Source: Actinomycetota bacterium (GTDB lineage Bacteria; Actinomycetota; AC-67). Taken from it: 57,397 nucleotides of DNA. Shown in pieces: positions 16,453 through 50,876 of this stretch (position 1 is the first letter of the stretch; the number at the start of each line of letters is the position of its first letter). Location: NCBI GenBank assembly GCA_035249485.1, contig DATFGK010000110.1, forward strand, positions 1 to 57,397. The letters are read 5' to 3'. Made by a program: the position numbers and the translations under genes. The notes below the pieces were generated by a model. It was not told the origin of the DNA and searched no databases. It saw only the letters and a program-made list of their open reading frames with translations.

Positions 16453-16522
16453 CTCGCCCGCGAGGTTCGCCTCGGAGGGGGTCGCATCCTTCCCGCCGCG
16501 GCCGGTGCGTTACCATCGGGCG

Positions 16523-16801
16523 ATGCCCGAGCCCCCCGAGATCCGGATCACCGGCGGCAGTCCGTCGGATGACGAGGAAGCCGCGATCCGCGAAGCCATC
16601 CTCCGTCTGTGGCGGCAGGAGCAGTCGGAAGCGCGCCGCGGCGGCGGCGGGTCGGCATGGGTCGTGGCCGCGCGCGCGGAAGGCTCCGGCTGGGGAGCCG
16701 CCGATGTGCGCGGGCTGACCGACGCGTGGCGGCTCGGAACGAGGATGCCGGGCTTCGGGCTGCTGAGCGTCCGGCGTACCGGCCGCGGCGACTCGAAGTG
16801 A
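16523..16801 (+). CDS. Possible acyl-CoA carboxylase epsilon subunit
   Basis: ATG at 16523. MPEPPEIRITGGSPSDDEEAAIREAILRL... resembles the N-terminal (I/V)R(V/I)..G.P..EE.AA. signature of actinobacterial AccE/PccE. Small and low complexity, so tentative. Confidence 0.4.
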   Translation: MPEPPEIRITGGSPSDDEEAAIREAILRLWRQEQSEARRGGGGSAWVVAARAEGSGWGAADVRGLTDAWRLGTRMPGFGLLSVRRTGRGDSK

Positions 16802-16818
16802 CCGACGAGAACCCCGGG

Positions 16819-18000
16819 ATGCCCCTCGAGGGGCTCAAAGTCATCGAGCTCGCGACGATCGTCGCCGGGCCATCGACCGGCAAGTACCTCGCCGACTTCG
16901 GCGCGGATGTGATCAAGGTCGAGCACCCGAAGACGGGCGACACCACGCGCGGCATGGGCTACAAGCACGAGGGCGTCGCGCTCTGGTGGAAGCTCGTCGG
17001 CCGGAACAAGCGGCCGGTGACGCTGAACCTCTCGCACCCGAAGGGCCAGGAGATCGCGCGCCGCCTGCTCGCGGACGCCGACGCGATGATCGAGAACTTC
17101 CGTCCCGGAACCCTCGAGCGCTGGGACCTGGCGCCGGACGCGCTCGCCGAGCTCAACCCACGGCTCATCGTGCTCCGCATCTCCGGCTTCGGCCAGACCG
17201 GTCCGTACGCCCGCAAGCCCGGCTTCGGAACGCTGGCCGAGTCGATCTCGGGCGTCGCGCACATCTCCGGGATGCCGGACGGCCCGCCGATGCTTCCCGC
17301 GATCGCGCTCGCCGACGAGGTCGCGGGGCTCGTCGGCGCGTACGCCGTGTTGATGGCACTCCACGAGCGCGATCGCTCGGGGAAGGGGCAAGTGATCGAC
17401 GCGTCGCTGTACGAATCGCTCTTCCAACTGACGGGGCCGCTGGCGATGGCCTACGACAAGCTCGGCGTCGTGATGGAGCGGATCGGGAACCGGATCGCGT
17501 ATTCGGCGCCGCGCAACGCGTACCGGACGGCCGACGGGCACTGGGTCGGCGTGAGCGGCACAGCGCAGACCGTCGCCGAGCGGATCTTCCGCGCGATCGG
17601 CCGCCCCGAGCTGATCACGGACCCGCGCTTCGCGACGAACAACGACCGCCTCGCGAACATCGACGAGCTCGACGCGGTGATCGGCGACTGGATCGGCGCT
17701 CACCCGCTCGACGAGGTCGTCGCGACGTTCGAAGCCGAGGGTGCGGCCGTCGCGCCCATCTACGACGCCCGGCAGATCTTCGACGACCCGCAGTACCAGG
17801 CGCGCGGTTCGATCGCGACGGTCGAGGACGACGAGCTCGGGACGCTCCGCATGCAGGACGTGACGCCGCGCCTCTCGCGCACCCCGGGCCGGATACGCCA
17901 CGCCGGTCTGCCGCTCGGGGCTGCGAACGGGGAGGTCTACGGGGCGCTCGGCATCTCGCCGGAGGAGCTCGCCGCGCTGAAGGCCGAACGCGTCATCTAA
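16819..18000 (+). CDS. Family III CoA-transferase (CaiB/BaiF type)
   Basis: ATG at 16819. PLEGLKVIELATIVAGPSTGKYLADFGADVIKVE.P..GD..R...NKR...L.L....G......L...AD..IENFRPG.... Confidence 0.9.
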   Translation: MPLEGLKVIELATIVAGPSTGKYLADFGADVIKVEHPKTGDTTRGMGYKHEGVALWWKLVGRNKRPVTLNLSHPKGQEIARRLLADADAMIENFRPGTLERWDLAPDALAELNPRLIVLRISGFGQTGPYARKPGFGTLAESISGVAHISGMPDGPPMLPAIALADEVAGLVGAYAVLMALHERDRSGKGQVIDASLYESLFQLTGPLAMAYDKLGVVMERIGNRIAYSAPRNAYRTADGHWVGVSGTAQTVAERIFRAIGRPELITDPRFATNNDRLANIDELDAVIGDWIGAHPLDEVVATFEAEGAAVAPIYDARQIFDDPQYQARGSIATVEDDELGTLRMQDVTPRLSRTPGRIRHAGLPLGAANGEVYGALGISPEELAALKAERVI

Positions 18001-18007
18001 GGACCAT

Positions 18008-18046
18008 GGGTGTGATTCGACTCGCATAACGAGAGGAATCACACCC
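18008..18046. terminator. Hairpin between convergent genes (11-bp outer stem + 4-bp inner stem), candidate bidirectional terminator
   Basis: GGGTGTGATTC (18008..18018) pairs with GAATCACACCC (18036..18046). Inner CTCG/CGAG stem with a CATAA loop. No U-tract. Confidence 0.4.
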
Positions 18047-18057
18047 GCCGGAGGGGG

Positions 18058-18339
18058 CTATCGCCGCCCGCGTGAGCGTTGCCAGCACGGCAGGTGCCAG
18101 TGCCGGCGGCCCTCCTCGGAGCCTTCGCGCCACGCGACAACATGCTTGGTCCCGACGCGGATCTCCTGATTGCAGCCGGGGCAGCGGTATTCCTTCGTCG
18201 CCGAGGCCGGTTGGATAAGGCGCACCTCCCATCCCTCCGGCGCGGCCGTCACGAGGTCCGGCGCGCGCAGCGGTTCCGGCTCCTCGTCGGAACCGGCTCG
18301 CGCCCGGCGCTTGCGCGGCGGGTAGTTCCGCCGCGGCAC
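18058..18339 (-). CDS. Small conserved-looking Cys/His protein (about 93 aa; CPGC...HWH..C)
   Basis: Proposed GTG at 18339, sharing 1 nt with the TAG of the upstream SDR gene. ...EYRCPGCNQEIRVGTKHVVAWREGSEEGRRHWHLPCW... looks like a zinc-ribbon-like small actinobacterial protein. Start uncertain. Confidence 0.5.
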   Translation of the reverse strand: MPRRNYPPRKRRARAGSDEEPEPLRAPDLVTAAPEGWEVRLIQPASATKEYRCPGCNQEIRVGTKHVVAWREGSEEGRRHWHLPCWQRSRGRR

Positions 18340-19109
18340 TAGATGGCGATCCCGCCGTCGATCTGGATGACGGTCCCCGTCGTGTACAGCGACGCGTCCG
18401 ATGCGAGGTAGATCGCAGCGCCGACGATGTCGCCCGTCTCGCCCCATCGCTGCCCGAGCGGCACGCCCTCGACCGTCTTCTTCGCCACCTCGGGATCGTC
18501 GCGCCACAGGTTCGTGTTGAGCGACGTCTTCACCCAGCCCGGGCAGATCGTGTTGATCCGCACGTTGGCGTGTCCCCACTCGACGGCCAGCGTCTTGCCG
18601 AGGTTGATCACGCCGGCCTTCGCGGCTCCGTAGAAGGAGAGCGTGGGCGACCCTTTGATGCCGGCGACCGACGACACGTTGATGACCGAGCCCGAGCCCC
18701 GCTCGACCATGTGCGCGCCGACCTTCTGGCAGAACAGGAACACGCTCTTGAGGTTCAACGCGATGCCCTTGTCCCAGCCTTCCTCGCGAGTCGTGAGCAG
18801 CGGCGCCATGAAGCGCGAACCGCCGGCGTTGTTCACGAGGATGTCGATGCCGCCGAGCCGGCCCAGAGCCGAGTCGACGCACCGCGTGACGTCGTCGGTC
18901 TTGGTCACGTCGCAGGTGATCGGCACACCCACGCGGCCCGTCGCCTCGATCTTCCCGGCGAGCTCCTCGAGCTCCGTCGTCGTCCGGGCCGTCACGGCCA
19001 CGTCGGCCCCGGCCTCGGCGAACGCGAGCGAAATCGCCGCGCCGATCCCACGCGACGCCCCGGTGACGAGCGCGCGCTTGCCTTCGAGCGAGAAGATCTC
19101 GGTGCCCAT
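18339..19109 (-). CDS. SDR-family oxidoreductase (FabG / acetoacetyl-CoA-reductase-like)
   Basis: 256 aa. ...KRALVTGASRGIG...NNAG...NVSSVAG...FYGAAKAG... Confidence 0.9.
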   Translation of the reverse strand: MGTEIFSLEGKRALVTGASRGIGAAISLAFAEAGADVAVTARTTTELEELAGKIEATGRVGVPITCDVTKTDDVTRCVDSALGRLGGIDILVNNAGGSRFMAPLLTTREEGWDKGIALNLKSVFLFCQKVGAHMVERGSGSVINVSSVAGIKGSPTLSFYGAAKAGVINLGKTLAVEWGHANVRINTICPGWVKTSLNTNLWRDDPEVAKKTVEGVPLGQRWGETGDIVGAAIYLASDASLYTTGTVIQIDGGIAI

Positions 19110-19117
19110 GGCTCCCC

Positions 19118-20887
19118 CTAGTAGGTGTAGAACCCGCGGCCCGCCTTGCGGCCGAGGTATCCCGCGTGCACGAGATGCTCGAGCAGCGGCGCCGGCGCAT
19201 AGCCCGGCTCGCGGAACTCGCCGTACAGCGAGTTGATGATCTGCAGCGAGACGTCGAGCCCCACGATGTCGAGCAAAGCGAACGGACCCATCGGGTGTCC
19301 GCAGCCCAGCTTCATCGCGTTGTCGATGTCTTCGGCGGCGGCGTAGCCGGACTCGAGCATGGTCACCGCGTCATTGAGGTACGGGAACAGCAGTGCGTTG
19401 ACGATGAACCCGGCTCGGTCGGGGCAGACGACGCAGTGCTTGCCCATCTTCGCCCCGGCCGCGAACACCGCGTCGGCAGTCTCGTCGCTCGTGCGAACGG
19501 TGCGGACGACCTCGACGAGCTTCATCACCTGCGCCGGGTTGAAGAAGTGCATCCCGACGACCTGCTCGGGGCGCTTCGTCGCCGCGGCGAGCGAGACCAC
19601 CGGCAGCGACGACGTGGTCGACGCGAGGATCGCGTGCGCCGGCGCGACCGCGTCGAGCTCCGCGAAGTGCTCGAGCTTGACGTCCAGTTCCTCGGCGATC
19701 GCCTCGATGATGAGATCGCAGTCGGAGAAGTTTTCCATCTCCGTCGTCGTCTCGAGCAACGCGCGCGTCGCGTCGAGCTTCTCCTGCGTCATCTTCCCTC
19801 GCTCGACCGCCTTGACGAGCGACTTTTCGACCTTGGCGGCCGACTCGCTGGCGCGCTGCTTCGAACGCGCGCGGAGCACGACCTTGTACCCGGCCTTGGC
19901 CGCCACTTCGGCGATGCCGTTGGCCATCGTGCCCGAGCCCAGGACACCGATCTTCTTGATGTGCGCGCCGGCGGTCTCGGGGACGTTCCGCCGGTGGTGG
20001 CCCGATTCCTTGAGTTGCGGGGACGCGGGCTCCTCGTACTCATAGACCCCGCGCCCGGCTTTCCGGCCGAGGAAACCGGCCGTGACGAGCTGCTTGATCA
20101 ACGGCGCCGGCGCGTACAGGGTTTCGCGGAACTGCCGGTACATCGCGTCGAGGATCTCGTAGGTCGAGTCGAGGCCGATCAGGTCGAGAAGTGCAAGCGG
20201 GCCCATCGGATGGCCGCACCCGAACTGCATCGCGGCGTCGATGTCCTCGCGCGTGGCGAACCCGGACTCGAGCATGCGGGCCGCGTTGTTGAGGTACGGG
20301 AAGAGGAGCAGGTTCGCGATGAAGCCGGCGCGGTCCTGGCACACGACGGGGCTCTTGCCGAGCGTCCCGGCCACCGACTTAGACGTCTCGAGCACCTCGG
20401 GATCGGTGACGACCGTCTTTACGAGCTCGACCAGACCCATGACGGGCGCCGGGTTGAAGAAGTGGAACCCGACGACGCGGCTCGGACGCCCGGTCTGGAC
20501 GGCCATCTCGATGACGGGCAGTGACGACGTGTTGGTTGCGAGGATCGCGTGCGCGGGAAGCATCGCGTCGAGATCTTTGAAGAGCTGCTGCTTGAGCTCG
20601 AGGATCTCCGGGATCGCCTCGATGACCAGATCCGATTCCTTCAAGCCCTCGAGGGTCGTCGAGCCCGAGATCCTGCCCAAGGCTGCGTCGCGATCCTCCG
20701 CAGGCAGCTTCCCCTTGTCGACCGCGCGGTCCATCGAATGACGGATCCGCGCGAGCCCCGCTTCGACGGCTTCGTCGTCGACCTCGCGGAACACGACCGT
20801 GTAGCCGGCGCGGGCGCAGACCTCGCTGATCCCGGAACCCATGGTCCCGCAACCGACGACGCCGATCGTTGCGATCTGTTCGCTCAT
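19118..20887 (-). CDS. Tandem-fused double 3-hydroxyacyl/3-hydroxybutyryl-CoA dehydrogenase (two complete Hbd units)
   Basis: ATG at 20887 with a GGAGGAGA SD. Unit 1: IGVVGCGTMGSGI...NTSSLP...GFHFFNPAPVM.LVE...GHPMGP. Unit 2: IGVLGSGTMANGI...TTSSLP...GMHFFNPAQVMKLVE...GHPMGP. Confidence 0.9.
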   Translation of the reverse strand: MSEQIATIGVVGCGTMGSGISEVCARAGYTVVFREVDDEAVEAGLARIRHSMDRAVDKGKLPAEDRDAALGRISGSTTLEGLKESDLVIEAIPEILELKQQLFKDLDAMLPAHAILATNTSSLPVIEMAVQTGRPSRVVGFHFFNPAPVMGLVELVKTVVTDPEVLETSKSVAGTLGKSPVVCQDRAGFIANLLLFPYLNNAARMLESGFATREDIDAAMQFGCGHPMGPLALLDLIGLDSTYEILDAMYRQFRETLYAPAPLIKQLVTAGFLGRKAGRGVYEYEEPASPQLKESGHHRRNVPETAGAHIKKIGVLGSGTMANGIAEVAAKAGYKVVLRARSKQRASESAAKVEKSLVKAVERGKMTQEKLDATRALLETTTEMENFSDCDLIIEAIAEELDVKLEHFAELDAVAPAHAILASTTSSLPVVSLAAATKRPEQVVGMHFFNPAQVMKLVEVVRTVRTSDETADAVFAAGAKMGKHCVVCPDRAGFIVNALLFPYLNDAVTMLESGYAAAEDIDNAMKLGCGHPMGPFALLDIVGLDVSLQIINSLYGEFREPGYAPAPLLEHLVHAGYLGRKAGRGFYTY

Positions 20888-20987
20888 CTCTCCTCCGGTC
20901 TCAAGGAAGCGTTCTACGAGGGGGCGCCTAGTTTCGCACCCGCCCGACGACGGCCTCAAACCGCACGTTCGCTACCATGGGAGCGCG

Positions 20988-22970
20988 ATGCCGGTGAATC
21001 ACCCGAAAGACGACCCCTGGCTGTTCCGCACCTACGCGGGTCACACGAGCGCGCGGGCGTCGAACGAGCTCTACAAGCGGAACCTCGCCAAGGGGCAGAC
21101 GGGCTTGTCGGTCGCGTTCGACCTTCCCACCCAGACCGGCTACGAGGCGGACCATCCGATGGCGGCCGGCGAGGTCGGCAAGGTCGGCGTCCCGATCGGT
21201 CACCTCGGCGACATGCGGGCCCTGCTCGACGGCATCCCGCTCGAGAAGATGAATACCTCGATGACGATCAACGCCACCGCGATGTGGCTGCTGGCGATGT
21301 ACGTCGCCGTCGCCGACGAGCAGGGAGCGCCGCGCGCCTCGCTCCAGGGCACGACGCAGAACGACATCCTCAAGGAGTACCTGTCGCGGGGGACCTACAT
21401 CTTCCCGCCGGGCCCGTCGATCCGGCTTATCACCGACATGATCACCTTCTGCGCCGACGAGGTGCCGAAGTGGAACCCCATCAATGTGTGCTCGTACCAC
21501 CTGCAGGAGGCCGGCGCGACCCCCGTTCAGGAGGTCGCGTTCACGCTCGCGAACGCGGTGGCCGTGCTCGACGCGGTGAAGGCGACGGGGCGCGTCCCCG
21601 AGGCGCAGTTCGCCGCGGTCGTGGGCCGGATCTCGTTCTTCTGCAACGCCGGGCTGCGTTTCATCGAGGAGACCTCGAAGATGCGCGCCTTCACCGAGCT
21701 GTGGGACCGGCTCACGCGCGAACGTTACGGCGTCGAAGATCCGAAGTTCCGGCGGTTCCGCTACGGCGTCCAGGTCAACTCGCTCGGGCTCGCCGCTTTG
21801 CAGCCGGAGAACAACGTGTACCGCATCATGCTCGAGGCGCTCGCCGTCACGCTCTCCAAGGACGCCCGGGCACGCGCGCTCCAGCTCCCGGCGTGGAACG
21901 AAGCGCTCGGCCTGCCGCGCCCATGGGATCAGCAGTGGTCGCTGCGGCTGCAGCAGATCCTCGCGCTCGAAACCGATCTCCTCGAGTACGAGGACATCTT
22001 CCGCGGGAGCGAGGTCGTCGAAGCGAAGACGAGGGAGATCGCGGCGGGTGCCTGGGAGGAGATGAACAAGGTACTCGGCATGGGCGGCGCCGTTGAGGCG
22101 ATCGACTATATGAAGTCGGAGCTCGTCGGGTCGCTCGCGACGCGCCAACGCGCCATCGAGGCAGGCGAGATCACCGTGGTGGGGGTGAACCGCTACACGG
22201 CGACCGAATCGTCGCCGCTCGACACCGAGGAAGCGCGGTTCGAGAAGCTCGACCCCGACGCGGAGAAGCGCCAGATCGCGAGCGTCGAGGAATACCGCGA
22301 CTCGCGCGACGACGGGGTTGCCGCGAAGGCGCTCGACGCGTTGCGTGCCGCGGCGCGCGGCGACGAGAACCTCGTCCCGGTTTCGATCGAGGCCGCACGG
22401 GCCGGCGCGACGACGGGGGAGTGGGCCGACGCCCTCCGCGAGGTGTTCGGAGAGTTCCGCGCGCCGACCGGCGTCGGGCAGGCCGTGCTTGCGGCCAACG
22501 CGCACGAGGCGCTGAAGCAGGTGCGCGCCAAGGTCGCCGGGGTGGCGGAACGGATCGGCGTGGGAAAGCTCCGCATGCTCGTCGGGAAGCCCGGCCTCGA
22601 CGGCCACTCGAACGGCGCCGAGCAGGTCGCCGTGCGGGCTCGAGACGCGGGGTTCGAGGTCGTCTACCAAGGGATCAGGTTGTCGCCCGAGGCGATCGCT
22701 CGGGCCGCGGCCGAGGAGGATGTGCACGTCGTCGGTCTGTCGATCCTCTCGGGCGGGCACGCGATGCTCGTCCCCGACGTCCTCGACCGGATGCGCGCGC
22801 ACGGCGTCGACCCGGCGAAGGTCCCGGTCGTGGTCGGCGGGATCATCCCCGAGTCCGACGCGGAGAAGCTCCGCGAGGCCGGTGTGGCAGCGGTCTATAC
22901 TCCCCGTGACTTCGACCTGACCCACCTGATGGGCGAAGTGGCCGAGGTCGTTGAACGAGCGAATGCCTGA
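20988..22970 (+). CDS. meaA: Coenzyme-B12-dependent acyl-CoA mutase, fused large + B12-binding domains; MeaA/ethylmalonyl-CoA-mutase-like
   Basis: ATG at 20988. ...DPWLFRTYAGHTSARASNELYKRNLAKGQTGLSVAFDLPTQTGY..DH....GEVGKVGVPI.HLGDMR.L.DGIPL..MNTSMTINATAMWLL... The C-terminal LDGHSNGAEQVAVRARDAGFEVVYQG is the DxHxxG B12 motif. Confidence 0.8.
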   Translation: MPVNHPKDDPWLFRTYAGHTSARASNELYKRNLAKGQTGLSVAFDLPTQTGYEADHPMAAGEVGKVGVPIGHLGDMRALLDGIPLEKMNTSMTINATAMWLLAMYVAVADEQGAPRASLQGTTQNDILKEYLSRGTYIFPPGPSIRLITDMITFCADEVPKWNPINVCSYHLQEAGATPVQEVAFTLANAVAVLDAVKATGRVPEAQFAAVVGRISFFCNAGLRFIEETSKMRAFTELWDRLTRERYGVEDPKFRRFRYGVQVNSLGLAALQPENNVYRIMLEALAVTLSKDARARALQLPAWNEALGLPRPWDQQWSLRLQQILALETDLLEYEDIFRGSEVVEAKTREIAAGAWEEMNKVLGMGGAVEAIDYMKSELVGSLATRQRAIEAGEITVVGVNRYTATESSPLDTEEARFEKLDPDAEKRQIASVEEYRDSRDDGVAAKALDALRAAARGDENLVPVSIEAARAGATTGEWADALREVFGEFRAPTGVGQAVLAANAHEALKQVRAKVAGVAERIGVGKLRMLVGKPGLDGHSNGAEQVAVRARDAGFEVVYQGIRLSPEAIARAAAEEDVHVVGLSILSGGHAMLVPDVLDRMRAHGVDPAKVPVVVGGIIPESDAEKLREAGVAAVYTPRDFDLTHLMGEVAEVVERANA

Positions 22971-23066
22971 TCGTCGGCCCATCCAGGGCTGGAGTGGGGC
23001 CTTGCCAACGTGGGGGATAATGGTACGGCCCAGCCACGCCGATCGGAACCGCTCGGAAGGAGTCTG

Positions 23067-25814: not shown

Positions 25815-26699
25815 ATGCGGAATCGTGTCTGGCCGATCCTGCGCGCCGCTTTCGGGCTCGTCGGCGTAACCTTCCTGGCGCTCGTCTTGGTGCGAACGGT
25901 GCGGCGCCTCGGTGTCGACACGGTTCCGTCGTGGCCGTCCTTCGTTGCTGCGGGGGTGCTTTCGGCCGGCTCGATCATGATCGGCGCACGAGGCTGGGCG
26001 TCCTTGTTCGACGAGGGGTCATCCGACCTGCGGCGCGGTTTCTACGCGTCGCAGCTCGGAAAATACATCCCCGGCGGCATCTGGCAGTCCGTAGCACTCG
26101 TCGGTTCCGCATCCCGGTCCGGGGCGAGCCTGCGCCATTCCACCGTTCGCTTGCCGGTCTATATGGTGACCACGATCGTCGCAGGGGCCACGGTTGGCGC
26201 CGCTCTTTCCATCGTTGGTACGTCGGTTCCATCGGCCGCACGCTGGGGATCACTCGCAGGTTTGGCGACCTTACCCTTGCTCACCAGGCGCTGGATGATG
26301 ACCACGGTCCGGCTCTTCCGGCGCATCTCGAAGCAGCCGACCTCGGAAGAAGACCTGATCCCACCCCGCGGCGCCATCCAGCGTTCCTATCTATTCAACC
26401 TCGGTTCGGTACTTGCCGGTTCTATGGCATTCGCCGTTCTGCTTGGGTCGTTACATACGCGGGTGTCCAGCATCGAAGCCGTTACGGGATTCTGCTTGGC
26501 GTGGATCGCCGGCTTCGTGGCGGTGCCGGTCCCATCCGGGATCGGCGTGCGTGAAGCGATACTCATCGGCCTGTTCGAGTCCGGTATCGAGGGTCCAGTG
26601 GTAACGGCGGCGGTGGCTCAGCGGATCGTCGCTATCGTGGCCGAACTCATCGTCGTGTTGGCTGCGTCCGGCGCCGGGCGAGGCGCCCGTCGATCTTGA
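25815..26699 (+). CDS. UPF0104 / MprF-flippase-domain-like membrane protein (second copy)
   Basis: Polytopic. ...YASQLGKYIPGGIWQSVA... and ...VPVPSGIGVREA.L..L... are typical of the family. Confidence 0.75.
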   Translation: MRNRVWPILRAAFGLVGVTFLALVLVRTVRRLGVDTVPSWPSFVAAGVLSAGSIMIGARGWASLFDEGSSDLRRGFYASQLGKYIPGGIWQSVALVGSASRSGASLRHSTVRLPVYMVTTIVAGATVGAALSIVGTSVPSAARWGSLAGLATLPLLTRRWMMTTVRLFRRISKQPTSEEDLIPPRGAIQRSYLFNLGSVLAGSMAFAVLLGSLHTRVSSIEAVTGFCLAWIAGFVAVPVPSGIGVREAILIGLFESGIEGPVVTAAVAQRIVAIVAELIVVLAASGAGRGARRS

Positions 26700-29449
26700 G
26701 AACCGAGAAGACCCGCGGCCTCGGTCCGACGGTATGGATCGCCGTCGTGGCCGTCGTCACGATAGTCCTGACGATCGGTCCGGCGTTGTTCGGTCGGGGC
26801 GTCTTCTTCCCCGGAGACATCGTCAAGCAGGTCGCACCGTGGCAGGTCGACGCGCCGAACGACTTCCAGCCGCAGAACCGCTTGCTCACCGATCTGGTTG
26901 ACGGAGCGGCGCCGCAACGCACGGAGGTTCGCCGCGGGATCCTCGATGGCGACTACCCGCTCTGGAACCCGTACTCGGCCGGCGGGACCCCGCTCGGGAC
27001 GCAGCCGCAGAACGGGATGTTCTCGCCGCTCCATCTCCCGTACCTGATCTTCTCTCCGTCGTACGCGCCGGCGGTCGCCAAGGCGGTCGAGATGCTCGTG
27101 GCACTCCTCTTCACGTTCCTGTTCCTGCGCCGGGTCGGGCTGGGGCGGCCGGCCGCGCTGGTCGGCGGCGTGCTCTACATGAACTCGGCGTTCCTCGTGG
27201 TATGGAGCACCTTCCCGCATGCGGAGGTGGCTGCGCTCATCCCGGCGCTCTTCTGGGCGGCCGAACGTGTACTCGCGCGACGGTCGCTGATCTCTGCGTT
27301 CCCCGTGTCGGTCGTGATCGCTGTGATGCTGTTGCAAGGGTTCCCCTCGGTCGCCGCGTACGCGGGGATCGCCGTCGCGTGCTACGTCCTCATGCGTCTG
27401 GCTCTCGATCGCGGGTCGTCGATGCGGGAACGCATCAAGGTGCTGGCGCGACTCGGCGTCGCGCTCGTGCTCGGCGTCGCGCTCTCCGCGATCCAGCTGC
27501 TTCCGTTTGTCGCGACACTGGACGACTTCGATCGCACGTACCGGCTCCAGCGATCGACGAGCGTCTTGCCCGTCAGCTCCCTCGTCACCGTGGCGGTGCC
27601 GAAGGCGTTCGGCGCTCCGCGCGACCACATCGACTTCGCGCCGCGGAATCAGGTCGAGATGCAAACGTTCGCCGGAGTCACGGCCCTGGTTCTCATGATC
27701 GGCGGTTTCCTGCGGCGACCGCGGGAGGGCGTGCTTCCCGGGGTGAAGGGCTTCCTCTGGGCGGGCGTCGCCGTCCTCGTCGTCATGGTCTTCATGGGGG
27801 GTCCGCTCCTCAGTGTCTTCCAGACACTTCTCTCACCGCTCTTCGAGGAGAACGCGGTTGGGCGGATGCGATCGGTCCTCGGGTTCTTCGTCGCCTCGCT
27901 CGCGGCCGTCGGCTTCCAGTCGTTCGTCTCCTCCGATCGTCCGCGGCTGGAGATATGGCAACGGATCGTCCTGGGTGTGGGCGGCTTGGCCGCTTTGGGG
28001 GGAGCGGCAGTCGGTCTCCTGCGCATGTACGAGGTCGCCCGCAACAACGGTCACTCGTCCTACTTCCTCGATCAGCTGTGGATCCCGGGCATGGCGGCGG
28101 CAGCGGTCGTGATCGCGCTCGTGATCGGCGGTCGATGGCGGCCGGGCGGTCAGCACGTCGCCCATTGGGTCGTGCCCGTCGCGTTCGCGATCGAATCCGT
28201 GGCCTTCGCGTCCGCGTTCCTGCCGACCGTCGACCGGACCGACTTCTATCCGGTGACTCCGACGCACCGCTACCTCGCCGCCAACATCGGTCATGAGCGG
28301 ATGGCCGCCGGCGGCGGCACGATGTGGCCCGGGTCTCAGACCTTCTACCGGCTCCGGACCGTCGCCTCACACGCGTTCCATCCCACCGAATGGCGAGATC
28401 TGCTCGAGGAGGTCGGCGTCCGCGGGCCGGAGACGCAACCGCTGTTCGGGTACGGCCGAGAAACCGCATCGGCGCCGATCCTTGATCGGCTCGGAGCCGG
28501 CTTCTGGGTGTCCAGGCCCGAGGAGCTCCCGTTCGGAGAGCCCATCCGTATCTCCCCGGGCAGTGATCGCGTTGTGCTGCGCTCACGGGTGCCGGTTCGG
28601 ATCCCGACGTCGCTCGAAGGGATAAGGGCAGTTGTCGTCCGTCTGGACGAAGCGTTCTCCTCGGACGAGCAGGGCGCGTTCATGGATGCGGAGGTGCTCG
28701 CACGTGACGGGCGCGTGCTCGCGCGAGGCGAGCGACGGATCCGAGCCGGGCAGGGCCCGGCTCGGATCCACGTACCGGTCGCGGAATACCGCTCGTCCGA
28801 TGGACGCGGCCGGCCGGCGTCGATCCGTCTCACGCTCCGCTCGGACGACGACGACGCCGTCGTCCTGGGGACCGCGGGCGTGCCCGCCGTAACCGCCGTT
28901 GTCGCGGACGACGACGGGCTCCGCCTGACATTCGCGGACGGCGCCGTCGTCTACCGGCGGCTCAACGCGCTTCCACGCATCCATTGGGCGAGCAGGACCG
29001 CGGTCGTGCCGGATCCGGCGGAACGCATCCGCCGGCTCGGCGCGGGCGTCGATCCGCGGACCGTCCTCCTCTCGGCCGCCGGCCCGGAGGCGAGCGCGGA
29101 ACCGGCGCTCATCGAGATCCTCGCGGACGAGGGCGACGAGATCCGGGTGCGCGTCCGGGCCGAAGGTCGCGGCTACCTGGTCGTCGCGGATTCGATCAGC
29201 GAGGGATGGCACGCGACGGTCGACGGTGCTCGTGCCGCGATCGTGGACGCGGATCACGCCGTCGGCGCGATCGTCGTCCCCGAGGGCGACCACGTCGTTT
29301 CGCTGGTCTATCGACCCGCCGGTTGGCGCGTCGGATCCAAGGTCAGCGCCGCGAGCGCCCTCGTGCTGGCCGCGGGCGCCGTCGTTGCGTTTCGCAGGCG
29401 CCGGAGGGACGACGAGGCGATCGACCGGCCCTTGCTCGACACTCCTTGA
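26696..29449 (+). CDS. YfhO-family GT-C membrane glycosyltransferase (917 aa)
   Basis: TTG start overlapping the upstream stop (TTGA). About 13 hydrophobic segments in the N-terminal 500 aa. The C-terminal part, ...VADSISEGWHATVDGARAAIVDADHAVGAIVVPEGDHVVSLVYRP plus a final TM helix, matches the YfhO end pattern. Confidence 0.75.
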   Translation: MRTEKTRGLGPTVWIAVVAVVTIVLTIGPALFGRGVFFPGDIVKQVAPWQVDAPNDFQPQNRLLTDLVDGAAPQRTEVRRGILDGDYPLWNPYSAGGTPLGTQPQNGMFSPLHLPYLIFSPSYAPAVAKAVEMLVALLFTFLFLRRVGLGRPAALVGGVLYMNSAFLVVWSTFPHAEVAALIPALFWAAERVLARRSLISAFPVSVVIAVMLLQGFPSVAAYAGIAVACYVLMRLALDRGSSMRERIKVLARLGVALVLGVALSAIQLLPFVATLDDFDRTYRLQRSTSVLPVSSLVTVAVPKAFGAPRDHIDFAPRNQVEMQTFAGVTALVLMIGGFLRRPREGVLPGVKGFLWAGVAVLVVMVFMGGPLLSVFQTLLSPLFEENAVGRMRSVLGFFVASLAAVGFQSFVSSDRPRLEIWQRIVLGVGGLAALGGAAVGLLRMYEVARNNGHSSYFLDQLWIPGMAAAAVVIALVIGGRWRPGGQHVAHWVVPVAFAIESVAFASAFLPTVDRTDFYPVTPTHRYLAANIGHERMAAGGGTMWPGSQTFYRLRTVASHAFHPTEWRDLLEEVGVRGPETQPLFGYGRETASAPILDRLGAGFWVSRPEELPFGEPIRISPGSDRVVLRSRVPVRIPTSLEGIRAVVVRLDEAFSSDEQGAFMDAEVLARDGRVLARGERRIRAGQGPARIHVPVAEYRSSDGRGRPASIRLTLRSDDDDAVVLGTAGVPAVTAVVADDDGLRLTFADGAVVYRRLNALPRIHWASRTAVVPDPAERIRRLGAGVDPRTVLLSAAGPEASAEPALIEILADEGDEIRVRVRAEGRGYLVVADSISEGWHATVDGARAAIVDADHAVGAIVVPEGDHVVSLVYRPAGWRVGSKVSAASALVLAAGAVVAFRRRRRDDEAIDRPLLDTP

Positions 29450-29552
29450 GCGGCTCGACGAGCGCGTGCGCGACCGCTGCGGCGCCGAGGCCGGCCGCCC
29501 TTGCCCTGTTAGGATGCGCTCGACACAGGAGTACGGATTGACCCCCCCTGCC

Positions 29553-31190
29553 ATGGACCCTTCCACGTATCCTGCCGCGTCCGGAGACGCGATCGAGTCC
29601 ACCGCGCGGAAGCGCGGGCCGCTCCCGCTGCACCCATTCTTCGTCGGCGCGTTCCCGGTGCTGTTCCTGTACGCGCAGAACGTCAACGAGGTCGCGACCG
29701 GCGAGGTCTGGGTGCCCCTCGCCGCGGCCGTTGGGCTCGCGGCCGCGCTGTTGCTGATCGCGCGGCTCACGCTGCGTGATTGGCTTCGAGCCGCGTTGAT
29801 CACGTCGTTCCTCCTGCTGCTGTTCTTCTCGTACGGCCACGTCGCGGAGGTGCTCAGAGGGACCAGGATCGCGGGTGTGTTGATCGGCCGCGACCGCTAC
29901 CTGGTCCTCGGCTGGGCGATGCTCGGCCTGCTTGGAGTGATCCTGGCTGTGCGGGCCCGCAAGCGCGTGGCGGACCTGACGCGGATCCTGAACGTTACGA
30001 CCGCCGCCCTGTTGGCGGTATCTCTGGTGACGATCGGACAGGGGAAGTGGGGTTCCTCCGTGGCGCCGATCGAGCTCGGCGGCGATGTGACCCCCGCCGC
30101 GACGCCCGGCCGAACGCAGCGCGACGTGTACTTCATCGTGCTCGACCGTTACGCCGGCGAACGAACGCTGCGCGAGGCGTACGGGTTCGACAACGGTCCG
30201 TTCCTGCAGTCGCTCCGCGACAAGGGGTTCTTCATCGCCGACCAGAGCCGCGCGAACTACCCGAACACGGCGCACTCCCTCGCGGCGACGATGAACCTCG
30301 ACTATCTCCATCCGCTGAGCAACGACGTCCCCGATGCCGCGGAAGCGACCTGGGGTCCGGTCTACTCGCTCGTCCGCGAGAACAAGGTCGCGTCGTTCTT
30401 CAAGGTCGCCGGTTATCGCTACGTTCACGTGGGTTCGTGGTGGGAGCCGACGAGGAGCAGCGCGGCCGCCGACGTGGTCTATCAGTACGACCCGCTCTCC
30501 GAGTTCACACGCGTCCTTTACAGCACCACCCTCGTGTGGCCTCTGGCGAAAAGGCTCGGCATCGCATCGTCCCGACTCGACCCGCGAACCGTCGAGTGGA
30601 AGCGCGTCCCGTATCAGTTCTCGAAGCTCGCGGAGGCCCGGAGGTACGAAGGGCCCACGTTCGTGTTCGGACACCTCCTCGTGCCGCACGAGCCTTATCT
30701 CTTCAACCGCGACGGGACCTTCGTGTCGCGCGATCAGGAAGAGTCTCGTTCCACCGTCACGAACTACATCGAGCAGCTCCGTTACACGAACGACCGGATC
30801 GGCGAGCTGGTGTCGACGTTGCTGTCCGGTCCGCCGGAGACCCACCCGATCATCATCATCCAGGCGGACGAGGGCCCCCCCGGATTGCCCGTGGCGGACC
30901 CCGGACCTCCGCTCGGACCCGGGTGGCTCCACGGCACCCCTGACCAGCTCCGGCAGAAATTCAGGATCCTGAGCGCCTACTACTTCCCGGGCGTCTCGAA
31001 GACCGGCCTGTATCCGTCGATAAGCCCGGTCAACGACTTCCGGCTTCTGCTGAACACGTATTTCGGCACGAAGCTGCCGCTCCTGCCCGACGAGGCTTGG
31101 GTCTGGCAGGATGAGGAACACCTATATACGTTCCTGCCCATCTCGAGGTACCTCGAGGAGCCGACCCAGCGGGATCCGCCTGATGGATGA
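29553..31190 (+). CDS. Membrane-anchored LtaS/sulfatase-like (alkaline-phosphatase superfamily) protein, paralogue A
   Basis: N-terminal 5 TM segments, then DVYFIVLDRYAG...ANYPNTAHSLAA...FVFGHLLVPHEPY...IIIQADEGPP. Start at ATG 29553, with ATG 29514 as an alternative. Paralogous to 47723..49276. Confidence 0.75.
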   Translation: MDPSTYPAASGDAIESTARKRGPLPLHPFFVGAFPVLFLYAQNVNEVATGEVWVPLAAAVGLAAALLLIARLTLRDWLRAALITSFLLLLFFSYGHVAEVLRGTRIAGVLIGRDRYLVLGWAMLGLLGVILAVRARKRVADLTRILNVTTAALLAVSLVTIGQGKWGSSVAPIELGGDVTPAATPGRTQRDVYFIVLDRYAGERTLREAYGFDNGPFLQSLRDKGFFIADQSRANYPNTAHSLAATMNLDYLHPLSNDVPDAAEATWGPVYSLVRENKVASFFKVAGYRYVHVGSWWEPTRSSAAADVVYQYDPLSEFTRVLYSTTLVWPLAKRLGIASSRLDPRTVEWKRVPYQFSKLAEARRYEGPTFVFGHLLVPHEPYLFNRDGTFVSRDQEESRSTVTNYIEQLRYTNDRIGELVSTLLSGPPETHPIIIIQADEGPPGLPVADPGPPLGPGWLHGTPDQLRQKFRILSAYYFPGVSKTGLYPSISPVNDFRLLLNTYFGTKLPLLPDEAWVWQDEEHLYTFLPISRYLEEPTQRDPPDG

Positions 31191-46691: not shown

Positions 46692-47699
46692 CTACCGGCG
46701 CTGTAACCAGAGGCTCCCGCCGGGGTTCTCGAGGCACAGGGGCATCTCGCGCCGGAACCACTCCTCGTGGAGGGCAACGACGTACGACGAGAAGAGCCGG
46801 ATCGCGAAGGCGTCGTTGAACATGAGGAAGGCGCGGACGAGGTAATCCTCGTTCCATGCTCTGCCTTGTTCCACCCACGCCTCGGGGTACTCGAACGGGT
46901 AGAAGACGCCGTGGATCTGCGCCCAGACGCCGGAGCGCAGACGCGGGAGCACCTCGAAGAAGAGATGATTGACGTCGCTCCCCGTCTTCGAGACGTGGCT
47001 CGAATCGACGAGGAGGATGTCTCCCGCGTCGAGCTCGGCGAACGGCTCGAGGCCGACGTCCTGAACCTCGGACGTGATGAATCGATGCGCGTCGAAATCC
47101 GATCGCCTCAGCAGGGCGCCCAGCTCGTTCGGATCCGGATGGACGAACGTGCAGGAGATGGCTCCTTCGAAGAAGCGGTCGTTGATATCGAGGAGTGCGC
47201 ACGACGAGTAGCCGGCTCCGACCGAGACGACCCGCTTCGGCGCGAGATGCCGGACGAGGAGCGAGAGGAAGATCGCGTCCGAGTAGCTGAAGAAGTCGTT
47301 GCCATAGTGGTAGCGGAGACCGGCTTGCAGCTCGTGTGCGAAAGGGAGCTCGCCGTAGCGGCCTTTGAGCTCTTCGAGCAGCCCCAGCTGTCCCGCGTCG
47401 TCGAGATCGATGCCGGGCAGGGCCCGGGTCGAGCGGTCGAAGATACGATCCGCCCGGGAGCGTATCGCGTCGAGCGACGGGATCGGCGAGGACGCGTGAC
47501 CCGGAGGAGCCCACGACGCCCGCAGCCGCTCGCTCGTGAGCCGCCCGACCTCCTCACGCAATGCGTTCAGCTCGGTGTGGACCGTGCGGCCCTGACGGCG
47601 GAGACGCTGGAGCTCTTGGTACGTCCTCGATCCGGGGATCCGCGCGCCGATCCGGCGCAGCTTGCGGCTGAGCCTTGCGACGGTCGGATCGGCACGCAT
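46692..47699 (-). CDS. Class I SAM-methyltransferase (Methyltransf_24-like) with short N-terminal basic helix + coil
   Basis: 335 aa. N-terminal ARLSRKLRRIGARIPG..TYQELQRLRRQGRTVHTELNALREEVGRLTSERL. Core: VVSVGAGYSS...ILLVDSSHVSKTGSDVNHLFFEVLPRL.SGV...HGVFYPFEYP..W...GRAWNEDYL. Confidence 0.75.
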   Translation of the reverse strand: MRADPTVARLSRKLRRIGARIPGSRTYQELQRLRRQGRTVHTELNALREEVGRLTSERLRASWAPPGHASSPIPSLDAIRSRADRIFDRSTRALPGIDLDDAGQLGLLEELKGRYGELPFAHELQAGLRYHYGNDFFSYSDAIFLSLLVRHLAPKRVVSVGAGYSSCALLDINDRFFEGAISCTFVHPDPNELGALLRRSDFDAHRFITSEVQDVGLEPFAELDAGDILLVDSSHVSKTGSDVNHLFFEVLPRLRSGVWAQIHGVFYPFEYPEAWVEQGRAWNEDYLVRAFLMFNDAFAIRLFSSYVVALHEEWFRREMPLCLENPGGSLWLQRR

Positions 47700-47722: not shown

Positions 47723-49276
47723 TCAGCTCGCGACCTGGTCGGTCACGCGGACGAAACGATACAGGTGTTGGCGGTCCTCCCAGACGTAGCTCTCGTCCGG
47801 CAAGAGCGGCAGAGAAGATCCGAAGTACAGCGACAGCAGCTTCCGGAAGATGTTGACGGGCGTCATGCCGGAGGGGAGCTCCGGTTCGCGAACCCCCGGG
47901 AGATGGAGCGCCATGAGGATCCCGAACTTCTGGCGGAGCTGGGGCGTGGTCTTCGTGACCCAGGATTCAGGGTCGGGGTTCGGATTGCTCGGGTCCACGC
48001 CGGGAGGCGGGCCTTCGTCGGACGACAGCACGATGATCGGGTCGGATCCGTCCGGTCCCGACAAGAGTCGGTCGACGGACCGCGTCATCATCTCGTTTGC
48101 GAACATCAGCTGTTCGAGGTAATTGCGGTGCCACGATCGCGAGCCAACCTGCTCCTCCGTGAGGAACGTGCCGGCGCGATCGAACACGTAGGGCTCGTGC
48201 GGAAGGAGGATATGAGCGAAGACGAAAGTTGGTTTGCCGTCGTTCCCGGCGCGCACGAGCTGCTCGAACTGGAACTGCACGCGGCCCCATTCGACCCGTC
48301 GAGGATCGAGCTTCTCCCCGCCGCCCAAGCCGCGCGAGAGCGGACCGATCGGCGTGGTGTCGAGCAGCGTTCTCGAGAACTCGGACAGCGGATCGAACGT
48401 GACGTTCTCGTCGGCGAGCGGGTTGTTGCGCGTCGGCTCCCAGCGCGATCCGATGTGCACGTATCGATACCCCTGCGCCTTCAGGAAGCGACCGACGTCG
48501 TGCCTGCCGAGGAGCGAATAGACGGGACGCCAGTCGCTCGAGGTGGAACCCGCGATCCGCGTCAGATCCTCGAGATAGCGCATGTTCAGGGCCGCGGCGA
48601 GCGAGTGTGCGGTGTTTGGGTAGTTGGCCCGGGCGTCTCTCGCCACCACGAATCCACGAGATTCGAGCGAGTCCAGGAACGGGTCGTTGTCGAAGGAGAA
48701 GAAGGTCTTCAGGGCTTCCTCCCCACCGTAGCGGTCGAAGATCACGTAGTAGATGTCGGGCTTCGGGCCGGCTCGGTTCTCGGGCGTGGGGAGCGGGGAT
48801 GAGCCGGCGACCGGATCGATCGACGACGGCTGCTTGACGGCGTCAACGGCGATGGGGACGGAGGCCACGAGGACCATGGCGGCGGCGACGATGTTGAGGA
48901 CCCTGGTCGCGTCGGCAAGCGGCCGGCGGATGCGAAGCAGCAGGAAGGCTCCTGCGACGGCGAGGAGGCCCCACGCCGCGAGCACGTAGCGATCACGTCC
49001 GACCGAGACGCCGGCCACTTCCCACTCCGCTACCGCGTCCGCCACGTATCCGTACGAGAAGAAGAGCAGGATCCAGAGCGACACAGGCAGCGCGGCCCGC
49101 TGGAGGTCCTTGACCGTCACGACCGTGAGTACAAGGAGGGTCAGCGCGCCGCCGACCACCACGCCGAGCGGAACCAGCAGTTGCCCGAGTGCAACCTCGT
49201 CGAGGTTCTGCTGGAAGAGATTCAGGACGGGAAACGCTGCAAAGAGGACGGGATGCAGTGGCCGCGGACGGCTCAC
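47723..49276 (-). CDS. Membrane-anchored LtaS/sulfatase-like protein, paralogue B
   Basis: GTG start overlapping the upstream stop (GTGA). Collinear with 29553..31190: LHPVLFAAFPVL.L...N..EVA...LLFFSYG...GRDRY...DIYYVIFDRYGG...ANYPNTAHSLAA...FVFAHILLPHEPY...SSDEGPP...LRQKFGIL. Confidence 0.8.
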   Translation of the reverse strand: MSRPRPLHPVLFAAFPVLNLFQQNLDEVALGQLLVPLGVVVGGALTLLVLTVVTVKDLQRAALPVSLWILLFFSYGYVADAVAEWEVAGVSVGRDRYVLAAWGLLAVAGAFLLLRIRRPLADATRVLNIVAAAMVLVASVPIAVDAVKQPSSIDPVAGSSPLPTPENRAGPKPDIYYVIFDRYGGEEALKTFFSFDNDPFLDSLESRGFVVARDARANYPNTAHSLAAALNMRYLEDLTRIAGSTSSDWRPVYSLLGRHDVGRFLKAQGYRYVHIGSRWEPTRNNPLADENVTFDPLSEFSRTLLDTTPIGPLSRGLGGGEKLDPRRVEWGRVQFQFEQLVRAGNDGKPTFVFAHILLPHEPYVFDRAGTFLTEEQVGSRSWHRNYLEQLMFANEMMTRSVDRLLSGPDGSDPIIVLSSDEGPPPGVDPSNPNPDPESWVTKTTPQLRQKFGILMALHLPGVREPELPSGMTPVNIFRKLLSLYFGSSLPLLPDESYVWEDRQHLYRFVRVTDQVAS

Positions 49277-50661
49277 GCCCGTCTCCGCATGAGATACAAG
49301 CTTCGCTCGGAGGAGACGATCGGTTCCCGGCGCTCGATGTTGAAACGCTTCGAGAACGCGGCCTCGAAGCCATCCGCCGTGTAGTGGGGGAAGATGTCGT
49401 CGCGCGCCCGGAGCAGGACGATCGCTTTCGGATCGCTCTTCGGGACGAACTCGATGATGAGCTTGTCCGTGAGGTCGGCGAAGAAGTCCGCGACCCGCTC
49501 GAGTGGGACGTTGTTACCGATCGCGAGGTGATGCACGAGCGCGAGTGCGAGCGCGAGGTCGGCGGGGCCGCGGTCCGCGAGGGAGTCCCGCTCGGTGTTC
49601 TCCCACCCGATCCGCGGGCTGGGGTTCGTCAGATCCATCACGAGGGGGAGCAAATTTGCGTCGCCGTCGCGCACGACCGCGTCGCGATACGCGGCTTCGA
49701 CGCACCCCGGGTCGATGTCGAAGCAGACCGTCGGGATCCCTTGGGCCGTGGCGATCCGGGCGAACGCGCCGACGTTGCCGCCGAGGTCCCAAACGGAGGA
49801 GGGCGCGGTTTCCTCGACGAGCTTGGAGACCAGCCGGCGCTTGTGATCCGTCGCCTCGGCCGTGTAGTGGTCGGCTTCCGCGTAATAGTCGGTCCACACG
49901 GTCTTCGGGGGTTGCCAGTCCAGCGCGCGGACGGCGGAGTCGAGGCTCGCGATGATCCCCTGCAGCCCGCGCGTGCTGAGCTTCCGCCCCTTCGCGCTCG
50001 CCCGAGGGTCCTCACCCGCGTGACGCTTCTGACTCTTCGCGTGCGCGTGGATGTGGAGCAACAAGGAAGCGCGTAGCTTGCTCCGGCGGGGGAGCAGTTC
50101 CCGCGCGAGATCGAGGGGGACCCCGTCGAGGTGCACGCGCGAGAGCTGAAGCAAGCGCACGTCCCGATAGGCCGCCAGCGCGAGCGGCGCGAGGAAGTGC
50201 TGACAGAACTGCCGGTAGGCCACCCAGGGTTCGCCGTCGCGAAGGGTCTCGAACGACAGCGTGTCGATGAGAACCGGCTTCCCGCGCAGCCACTGGATGT
50301 TGTAAGCGCTCGCGTCGCGGAGCGACATCCCGTGCTCGATCGCGGTGCGCTGGATCTGCAGCGTCGCTCGCGCCGCGTCCTTCAACTGGCCGAAGCTCCA
50401 CTCGTACGGGTACGAGATGAACGGCACGGGCTCGGGTCGGATGACCTTGTAGGCGTCGGAGGTCGCGGCGAGTGCAAGATCGACTTCCTGATGTGGAACC
50501 ATCAGGCCGTTGCCGACGAGGGCGTCGTAGAGGCCCGAAGAGGCCAGGTGATCCCAGTGCTGCCTGTGGACTTCGTTGATCTGGCGAAGAAGATCGCCGT
50601 CTCTGCGGAAGACGAATCCGCTGGGGTCTCGGAAGGAGCCCCCGAGACGCTCGAGCGGCAT
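49273..50661 (-). CDS. Two-domain protein: N-terminal protein-kinase-like (tentative) domain + C-terminal class I SAM-methyltransferase
   Basis: 462 aa. N-terminal ...YKVIRPEPVPFISYPYEWSF...SLRDASAYNIQWLRGKPVLIDTLSF (Asp116, Asn121 at +5, Asp133 at +17). C-terminal motif I VWDLGGNVGAFA...CFDIDP...LALALVHHL. Confidence 0.75.
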   Translation of the reverse strand: MPLERLGGSFRDPSGFVFRRDGDLLRQINEVHRQHWDHLASSGLYDALVGNGLMVPHQEVDLALAATSDAYKVIRPEPVPFISYPYEWSFGQLKDAARATLQIQRTAIEHGMSLRDASAYNIQWLRGKPVLIDTLSFETLRDGEPWVAYRQFCQHFLAPLALAAYRDVRLLQLSRVHLDGVPLDLARELLPRRSKLRASLLLHIHAHAKSQKRHAGEDPRASAKGRKLSTRGLQGIIASLDSAVRALDWQPPKTVWTDYYAEADHYTAEATDHKRRLVSKLVEETAPSSVWDLGGNVGAFARIATAQGIPTVCFDIDPGCVEAAYRDAVVRDGDANLLPLVMDLTNPSPRIGWENTERDSLADRGPADLALALALVHHLAIGNNVPLERVADFFADLTDKLIIEFVPKSDPKAIVLLRARDDIFPHYTADGFEAAFSKRFNIERREPIVSSERSLYLMRRRA

Positions 50662-50876
50662 CAGCCCTTGTTGCGTGAGAAGCGGCGGCTCAACGCCGCC
50701 CTGATCCGCCGCCAGAACACGCCCACGGCCATGAACGCGCCGACGAACGCGCCCACGACGAGCTGGAGGATGTAACTGCCGGAACCCGCGTCGATGTACG
50801 CCGTTCCACCTTCGATACCCAAGACGATGATGAGCAACATGGGAAGAGCCATAACGCCGCGTGAGCGACCCTTCAT
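50661..50876 (-). CDS. Small membrane protein (71 aa, two hydrophobic helices)
   Basis: ATG at 50876, 5 nt after a perfect AGGAGG (plus-strand CCTCCT at 50883..50888). MKGRSRGVMALPMLLIIVLGIEGG...YILQLVVGAFVGAFMAVGVFW. Its stop shares 1 nt with the next start (TGATG). Confidence 0.5.
   Translation of the reverse strand: MKGRSRGVMALPMLLIIVLGIEGGTAYIDAGSGSYILQLVVGAFVGAFMAVGVFWRRIRAALSRRFSRNKG

Follow-up and report, generated by a model that had tools for sequence, protein, structure and literature searches.

A NoeA/Lani_1194-family protein with a kinase-like domain fused to a class I methyltransferase, encoded in a mobile cassette within an actinobacterial glycopolymer cluster

We analysed a 57,397-nucleotide stretch of the genome of an Actinomycetota bacterium of the AC-67 lineage (contig DATFGK010000110.1 of assembly GCA_035249485.1), hereafter the window, which encodes a 462-amino-acid (aa) protein consisting of a protein-kinase-like domain and a class I S-adenosylmethionine (SAM) methyltransferase domain. 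Sequence comparison assigns this protein to the known NoeA/Lani_1194 family of kinase-methyltransferases, not to the relatives of WbdD, the Escherichia coli O9a enzyme to which it had been likened. The gene is the middle one of a widespread, horizontally mobile three-gene cassette. The overall best explanation, towards which we lean slightly, is that the protein is bifunctional, a NoeA/Lani_1194 family member with an atypical kinase-like domain.

Results

Membership of the NoeA/Lani_1194 family

In a BLASTP comparison, the protein aligns over its full length with the annotated 'nodulation protein NoeA' of Ensifer canadensis (35% identity over 456 aa, E = 5e-80), and the alignment keeps SFRDPSG, R26, YPYEWSF, D116, N121, D133 and all methyltransferase motifs. 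In a tblastn search of plasmids, 57 symbiotic plasmids of Sinorhizobium matched with 35% identity and 99% coverage (E = 6e-60). A homologue with 56% identity is encoded on plasmid pSINAC01 of Singulisphaera acidiphila DSM 18658, next to a gene annotated as 'LTA synthase family'. In E. canadensis pT173b, the genes are arranged in the order nodL, a 71-aa hypothetical protein, noeA and noeB (annotated as 'sulfatase-like hydrolase/transferase'), which matches the order in the window.

The family was described by Krysinska et al. 2022 (PMC9758233), who reported that Lani_1194 of Legionella anisa and NoeA combine a kinase-like domain with a class I methyltransferase through an extensive interface. 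According to that study, the equivalents of D166, N171 and D184 are kept, an Arg, R38 in Lani_1194, stands in the place of K72 of PKA and is assigned the role of the beta3 Lys, and the ion-pair Glu was not found. The methyltransferase domain is present in 94% of about 2000 homologues, and two conserved neighbours occur in 65% and 38% of 816 neighbourhoods; the arrangement was contrasted with that of WbdD, and the function was called uncharacterised (PMC9758233). Our results, obtained independently, agree with these on all points, including the active-site assignment.

The family is large. A word-index search for homologues of the protein returned at least 8000 matches, and an exhaustive search of 50%-identity representatives yielded 6222 clusters at E ≤ 1e-3, with 1872 at E ≤ 1e-30. 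A scan of species-representative genomes found relatives at 52-61% identity in many phyla, including Actinomycetota, Chloroflexota, Acidobacteriota, Planctomycetota, Omnitrophota, Chlamydiota, Pseudomonadota, Clostridia, a bacterium of the candidate phyla radiation and two archaeal metagenome-assembled genomes; in the databases, homologues are named only 'SAM-dependent methyltransferase' or 'PrmA'. Closer to home, all three genomes of the genus carry the gene, as do 4 of 16 genomes from the rest of the family and one of 12 from the phylum's other families, a patchy distribution typical of accessory surface-decoration modules. One homologue in a same-family genome (G008:C61:1838-3196) contains a single in-frame TGA and could be a pseudogene or reflect a sequencing error.

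The protein shares with NoeA and Lani_1194 the domain order, the Arg-for-Lys substitution combined with the conserved D, N and D, the small membrane protein encoded upstream and the membrane enzyme of the alkaline-phosphatase fold encoded downstream. Relative to NoeA, the protein is part of a branch with higher conservation (52-74% identity), whose members come from Actinomycetota, Chloroflexota, Acidobacteriota, archaea and other groups. Unlike the rhizobial noeA operon, the locus in the window has neither nodL nor a nod box, lies in a cell-wall glycopolymer cluster and includes an additional methyltransferase gene and a second NoeB-like paralogue.

The two domains and the predicted active site

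The open reading frame (ORF) on which the original prediction was based is real: its GC content at third codon positions is 0.87, the value of genuine genes, in a window with 68% GC. The strings on which the prediction drew, namely, SLRDASAYNIQWLRGKPVLIDTLSF (containing D116, N121 and D133), VWDLGGNVGAFA, CFDIDP and LVHHL, and the residue numbers are all correct. Because a signal peptide is absent, the protein is placed in the cytoplasm.

Sequence searches with the N-terminal domain gave nothing: there was no Pfam match to the N-terminal 249 residues even at E = 10, nothing meaningful in NCBIfam and no match among PDB sequences (phmmer and hmmsearch). The fold was therefore modelled. The full-length AlphaFold2 model, built from a 113-sequence alignment, consists of two domains (predicted local distance difference test score, pLDDT, 96.9; predicted template modelling score 0.95) that, as modelled, are packed as one tight unit. 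A Foldseek search with this model returned only class I methyltransferases, aligned over about 214 columns (E = 1e-8 to 1e-6, probability 1.0). Since the search was dominated by the methyltransferase domain, residues 1-250 were modelled separately, using 60 locus-derived fragments (pLDDT 90.6). All 50 best Foldseek matches of this second model in the PDB have the protein-kinase fold, including PAK1, a CMGC kinase, Myt1, TYK2, AceK, PknG, ROCK1 and CK2 (E = 2e-5 to 3e-4, probability 1.0, template modelling score, TM-score, about 0.4), and 208 matches were obtained at E ≤ 1e-3. The claim of a kinase-like N-terminal domain, made originally from short motifs, was thus upheld by the fold of the model, with kinases only among these best 50.

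The elements of the modelled domain are, in order, strands 15-20 and 23-29 (containing R26), helix 30-42, strands 57-60 and 70-76 and then, after the hinge, helix 90-109, strand 112-114, the loop from D116 to N121, strands 122-125 and 128-131, and D133. In the model, this order fits the kinase plan. The proposed hinge, FISYPYEW, is plausible, with PFISYPYEW located between strand 70-76 and helix 90-109.

D116, N121 and D133, which had been singled out for their kinase-like spacing, are invariant in 60 N-terminal domains from many phyla, are conserved at 90% or more in 113 representatives with 40-61% identity to the protein, and are kept in NoeA. In these alignments, such conservation far exceeds that of a chance D-x4-N-x11-D pattern. 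Also invariant in the 60 domains are S9-F-R-D-P-x-G15, R26, E87-W88, W146, Y149 and other residues. R26 is probably the counterpart of the beta3 Lys, an equivalence drawn from the order of strands. K72 of the protein (in YKVIRPE), which had been suggested for this role, is ruled out: it is replaced by H, L, S or R in homologues (R in NoeA), and its strand, 70-76, is the last of the N-lobe, directly before the hinge, and not beta3.

When the profile of the N-terminal domain was compared with three Ser/Thr kinases of the same genome using hhalign, only GMSLRDASAYNIQ aligned, to GIVHRDVKPANIM; although not significant (E = 0.44), this alignment is consistent with the catalytic-loop mapping. The Pfam APH family (PF01636) matched 10 places in the genome, the gene in question not being among them, and no APH or ChoK structure is present among the best 50 fold matches of the kinase-like domain. 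On balance, it is likely that this predicted kinase-like domain has kinase activity.

The invariant SFRDPSG segment (residues 9-15; window positions 50617-50637, minus strand) has a pLDDT of 90-97 in the full-length model vs 58-68 in the model of residues 1-250. This difference suggests that the segment packs on the methyltransferase domain, and its role may be in the interdomain interface or the methyltransferase site rather than in a classical Gly-rich loop.

The reading of the C-terminal half as a class I methyltransferase was confirmed by the matches of the AlphaFold2 model and by the intact motif I. Pfam detects Methyltransf_23 at residues 275-380, below threshold (E = 4e-4), and the invariant residues of this half among the 113 representatives are K274, D292, H378, E404 and R453.

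Comparison with WbdD

The original prediction was of WbdD-like chemistry in reversed domain order. WbdD of E. coli O9a consists of a methyltransferase (residues 1-210) and a kinase (211-459) followed by a coiled coil, and phosphorylates the terminal mannose and then methylates that phosphate (PMC3482155). What stands of the prediction is the fusion, in reversed order, of a kinase-like fold to a class I methyltransferase on one polypeptide, which together with the link to glycan biosynthesis is shared with WbdD (PDB 4AZS/4AZT); a specific kinship with WbdD does not stand. WbdD (4azt) is nominally the top Foldseek match of the full model (E = 1.6e-8), level with DnrK, ChlM and others, and the similarity is that of the generic methyltransferase fold only, with a sequence E-value of 0.14. 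Among the best 50 PDB fold matches of the kinase-like domain, WbdD is absent.

Beyond domain order, the protein differs from WbdD in its Arg-for-Lys kinase subtype and in having no coiled-coil ruler: the model contains no coiled coil, and the protein ends at the methyltransferase. The partners differ as well, namely, a small membrane protein and a NoeB-like enzyme here and WbdA with an ABC transporter in the case of WbdD; a scan of ORFs between 15 and 56 kb of the window found no ABC-transporter genes (Wzm/Wzt). The analogy with WbdD is reasonable as chemistry and wrong as kinship.

The three-gene cassette

The gene for the kinase-methyltransferase is flanked by those for a small membrane protein and a NoeB-like membrane enzyme (Table 1). 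The small gene is preceded by AGGAGG, 5 nt upstream of its ATG; its stop codon overlaps the start of the next gene (TGATG), which in turn overlaps the NoeB-like gene (GTGA). These overlapping junctions suggest translational coupling of the three genes. The operon predicted to include an LtaS/sulfatase-like membrane protein and another methyltransferase was thereby recovered, the latter gene being separated by a gap of 23 nt.

Table 1. Features of the kinase-methyltransferase locus and the related paralogue, in window coordinates
Feature	Position	Strand	Basis
NoeA/Lani_1194-family protein, 462 aa, kinase-like domain fused to class I SAM methyltransferase	49273..50661	-	ORF, AlphaFold2 model, NoeA homology
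Protein-kinase-like domain, residues 1-250	49912..50661	-	Foldseek; strand/helix order N-lobe, hinge, C-lobe
R26, probable counterpart of beta3 Lys (PKA K72)	50584..50586	-	Invariant; kept in NoeA
Catalytic-loop equivalent D116-A-S-A-Y-N121	50299..50316	-	D116 and N121 invariant
D133 (IDTLSF), DFG-Asp equivalent	50263..50265	-	Invariant; after strands 122-125 and 128-131, as DFG after beta7/beta8
Class I SAM methyltransferase domain, residues ~251-462	49276..49911	-	Foldseek; motif I VWDLGGNVG at 49768..49794
Small membrane protein, 71 aa, ATG 50876; signal-like segment, YIDAGSGSY motif, transmembrane helix, basic tail	50661..50876	-	
NoeB-like polytopic membrane enzyme, alkaline-phosphatase/sulfatase superfamily, 517 aa	47723..49276	-	PF00884, E = 8.7e-7, above threshold
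Methyltransf_24 protein, N-terminal basic/coiled segment, fourth operon gene	46692..47699	-	PF13578, E = 1e-6; 23-nt gap
Second NoeB-like paralogue, PF00884	29226..31190	+	47% identity over 515 aa, E = 5e-154, to 47723..49276

The conservation of the cassette was assessed in 83 non-redundant related loci, with evaluable subsets that differ per neighbour. A small protein is encoded directly upstream of the homologue in 67 of 75 loci and a NoeB-like protein directly downstream in 38 of 74, with both partners present in 33 of 67. At some loci that lack a NoeB-like match, its place is taken by a divergent PF00884 protein, a Capsule_synth protein or a family 2 glycosyltransferase (GT2).

Homology (E = 4e-9) links the small, bitopic membrane protein to the 71-aa ORF that precedes noeA. 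Proteins of this kind share the motif Y-I/L-D-P-G-S/T-G-S, a transmembrane helix and the juxtamembrane signature (V/I)K(V/I)(F/Y)W(K/R)(K/R)(I/L). Across loci L001-L085, they come in two builds, with the motif located either after a signal-like segment ending in A-x-A or, in Chloroflexota, directly after the initiator Met; in the actinobacterial lineage of the window, relatives included, the Pro of the motif is Ala. The cytoplasmic tail is variable and has no conserved Ser, Thr or Tyr, which rules out a conserved phospho-acceptor in the tail.

The NoeB-like protein is 44-49% identical to the products of genes downstream of homologues of the kinase-methyltransferase and shows weak similarity to rhizobial NoeB (E = 7e-6); a profile search of the PDB gave only spurious matches, none of them significant, to solved structures. 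Similarly to GacH, LtaS and EptA, it combines an N-terminal polytopic membrane domain with an outward-facing domain of the sulfatase fold (PF00884). GacH reportedly adds glycerol phosphate to streptococcal rhamnose polysaccharides (bioRxiv 10.1101/337519), and the NoeB-like gene resembles that of GacH in its placement within a rhamnose-polysaccharide cluster. Unlike GacH and LtaS, it is coupled to NoeA and the small protein.

The fourth gene of the operon, encoding the Methyltransf_24 protein, was found at none of the 85 related loci and is absent even in the closest, 73%-identical relatives, so it is ruled out as a conserved functional partner. In those relatives (L098:11999-12208; L099:12001-12195), its place is occupied by a 64-69-aa ORF that consists of only a basic helix and a coil and, by eye, resembles the N-terminus of the Methyltransf_24 protein. 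This suggests a fusion or truncation event in one lineage.

The glycopolymer cluster

The surroundings of the cassette in this actinobacterial lineage are those of a gene cluster for a rhamnose-containing cell-wall glycopolymer. The context in the window includes GT2s, an LCP ligase, RmlA/B/D, GT-B enzymes, wecB and wecC-like genes, a PMT_2-type GT-C and a YfhO-like gene. The cluster is syntenic with that of the 73%-identical relatives, the shared genes being those for a wecC-like dehydrogenase, wecB, a GT4, a convergent double GT-B, a GT2, a GT2-methyltransferase and the rml genes. Whereas the 59%-complete genome contains one NoeA gene, the cluster holds two NoeB-like genes. The second of these directly follows the YfhO-like gene (26696-29449), and its alignment with the cassette paralogue begins at residue 132 of the listed ORF (29226-31190), which probably places the true start further downstream. 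Window positions 15034-23000, immediately upstream of the glycan cluster, are occupied by a block of acyl-CoA metabolism genes, unrelated to the kinase-methyltransferase, that encode a CoA-transferase III, a short-chain dehydrogenase, a double 3-hydroxyacyl-CoA dehydrogenase and a methylmalonyl-CoA mutase.

Discussion

As the best, if unproven, working model, we propose by analogy that the NoeA-like enzyme acts in the manner of WbdD, phosphorylating and then methylating an envelope substrate. In this scheme, the small membrane protein would expose its Y-I/L-D-P/A-G-S/T-G-S motif outward and its basic tail toward the cytoplasm, tethering the NoeA-like enzyme at the inner face of the membrane. 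There, the enzyme would act on one membrane-associated envelope precursor, either a lipid-linked glycan or a lipid head group, phosphorylating it with ATP and methylating it with SAM; the order of the two steps is borrowed from WbdD. The NoeB-like enzymes, with the catalytic domain facing outward, would then add or transfer the phospho-group on the outer face, and in this lineage the rhamnose polymer of the cluster would be the likely target. The chances that an envelope glycopolymer is the target in this organism appear evenly balanced, and methyl phosphate as the product is a tentative and rather doubtful suggestion that leans on the comparison with WbdD.

Several observations weigh against this interpretation. 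The N-terminal domain shows no sequence-level similarity to kinases in Pfam, PDB or APH searches, and neither the ion-pair Glu nor a canonical glycine-rich loop is identifiable in it. An activity or substrate has been demonstrated for no member of the family (PMC9758233), and a common target atom for the two domains, as in the WbdD analogy, finds no support in the present results. An adjacent NoeB-like gene is missing at half of the loci. In most other genomes, the cassette is surrounded by unrelated genes, and therefore the glycopolymer link may be lineage-specific.

The alternatives differ in what they make of the two domains and of the partners. A true WbdD-type terminator would cap the non-reducing end with methyl phosphate and set chain length, with only the domain order reversed. 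The presence of the same two enzyme classes as in WbdD, the location of the gene in a glycopolymer cluster and the nominal first rank of 4azt among the matches of the full model fit such a role, but that match comes through the generic methyltransferase fold, at the level of DnrK and ChlM and with a non-significant sequence similarity, and WbdD is missing from the best 50 matches of the kinase-like domain. Given also that the coiled-coil ruler is absent, that no Wzm/Wzt transporter was seen among the scanned ORFs and that the family mostly occurs without glycan genes nearby but with partners that WbdD lacks, we consider this reading highly improbable. The kinase-like domain could, on the other hand, be no phosphotransferase at all but a pseudokinase-type module that binds substrate or nucleotide, or a catalyst of another nucleotide-dependent transfer, such as AMPylation, in which case the protein would be essentially a methyltransferase with a recognition domain. 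This would accommodate the replacement of the beta3 Lys by Arg and the failure to identify the alphaC Glu and a canonical Gly-rich loop (PMC9758233). It would also fit the TM-scores to kinases of only about 0.4 and the SFRDPSG segment, which is modelled confidently only together with the methyltransferase domain, suggesting a methyltransferase or interface role. However, the invariance of D116, N121 and D133 across archaea and over ten bacterial phyla is what would be expected of an active metal-nucleotide site, and in pseudokinases one or more of these D/N/D residues is usually lost. We regard this reading as unlikely.

Two other readings concern what the cassette acts upon, and both seem to us improbable. 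In one, the substrate or product is the small membrane protein: its outward, N-terminal Y-L-D-P-G-S/T-G-S motif would receive a phospho-form from the NoeB-like enzyme, much as pilin does from PptA, and in the cytoplasm NoeA would modify the small protein or its carrier. No other partner is linked as tightly as the small protein (67/75 loci vs 38/74 for NoeB), and the motif is nearly invariant and follows an A-x-A signal-peptidase-like site or, in Chloroflexota, stands at the N-terminus. Nevertheless, a tether or subunit role accounts for the same linkage, many loci lack NoeB, the Pro of the motif is Ala in this lineage, and a cytoplasmic tail without conserved Ser, Thr or Tyr would make a poor kinase substrate. 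In the other, the product of NoeA would be a dedicated donor lipid on the inner leaflet, whose head group, phosphorylated and methylated, the NoeB-like enzyme would then pass on to surface glycans outside. Enzymes of the LtaS/EptA/GacH type indeed take lipid head groups as donors, the genes are apparently translationally coupled, and two NoeB-like paralogues coexist with only one NoeA in the genome; but the enzymes known from this superfamily draw on bulk phospholipids, no flippase belongs to the cassette, and NoeB is missing at half of the NoeA loci.

A further, more speculative reading, which we hold to be unlikely, is that the trio of the small peptide, NoeA and NoeB is a self-contained machine that would install an uncatalogued envelope phospho-form, for example, a methyl-phosphate or a methylated phospho-alcohol, with NoeA making or priming the group inside, the NoeB-like enzymes transferring it outside and, in this lineage, the rhamnose-containing wall polymer encoded around the trio as the acceptor.

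The window adds no new kind of system; the protein described here is a further member of a known family. The reach of the NoeA/Lani_1194 cassette is very wide, extending over archaea and many bacterial phyla, and the cassette affects legume host range in rhizobia. The main contribution of this locus is the conserved, syntenic rhamnose-glycopolymer setting with two NoeB-like paralogues, which points to a wall polysaccharide as a candidate acceptor. Should the cassette operate as such a machine, this polymer would give a family that occurs in thousands of genomes its first concrete acceptor.

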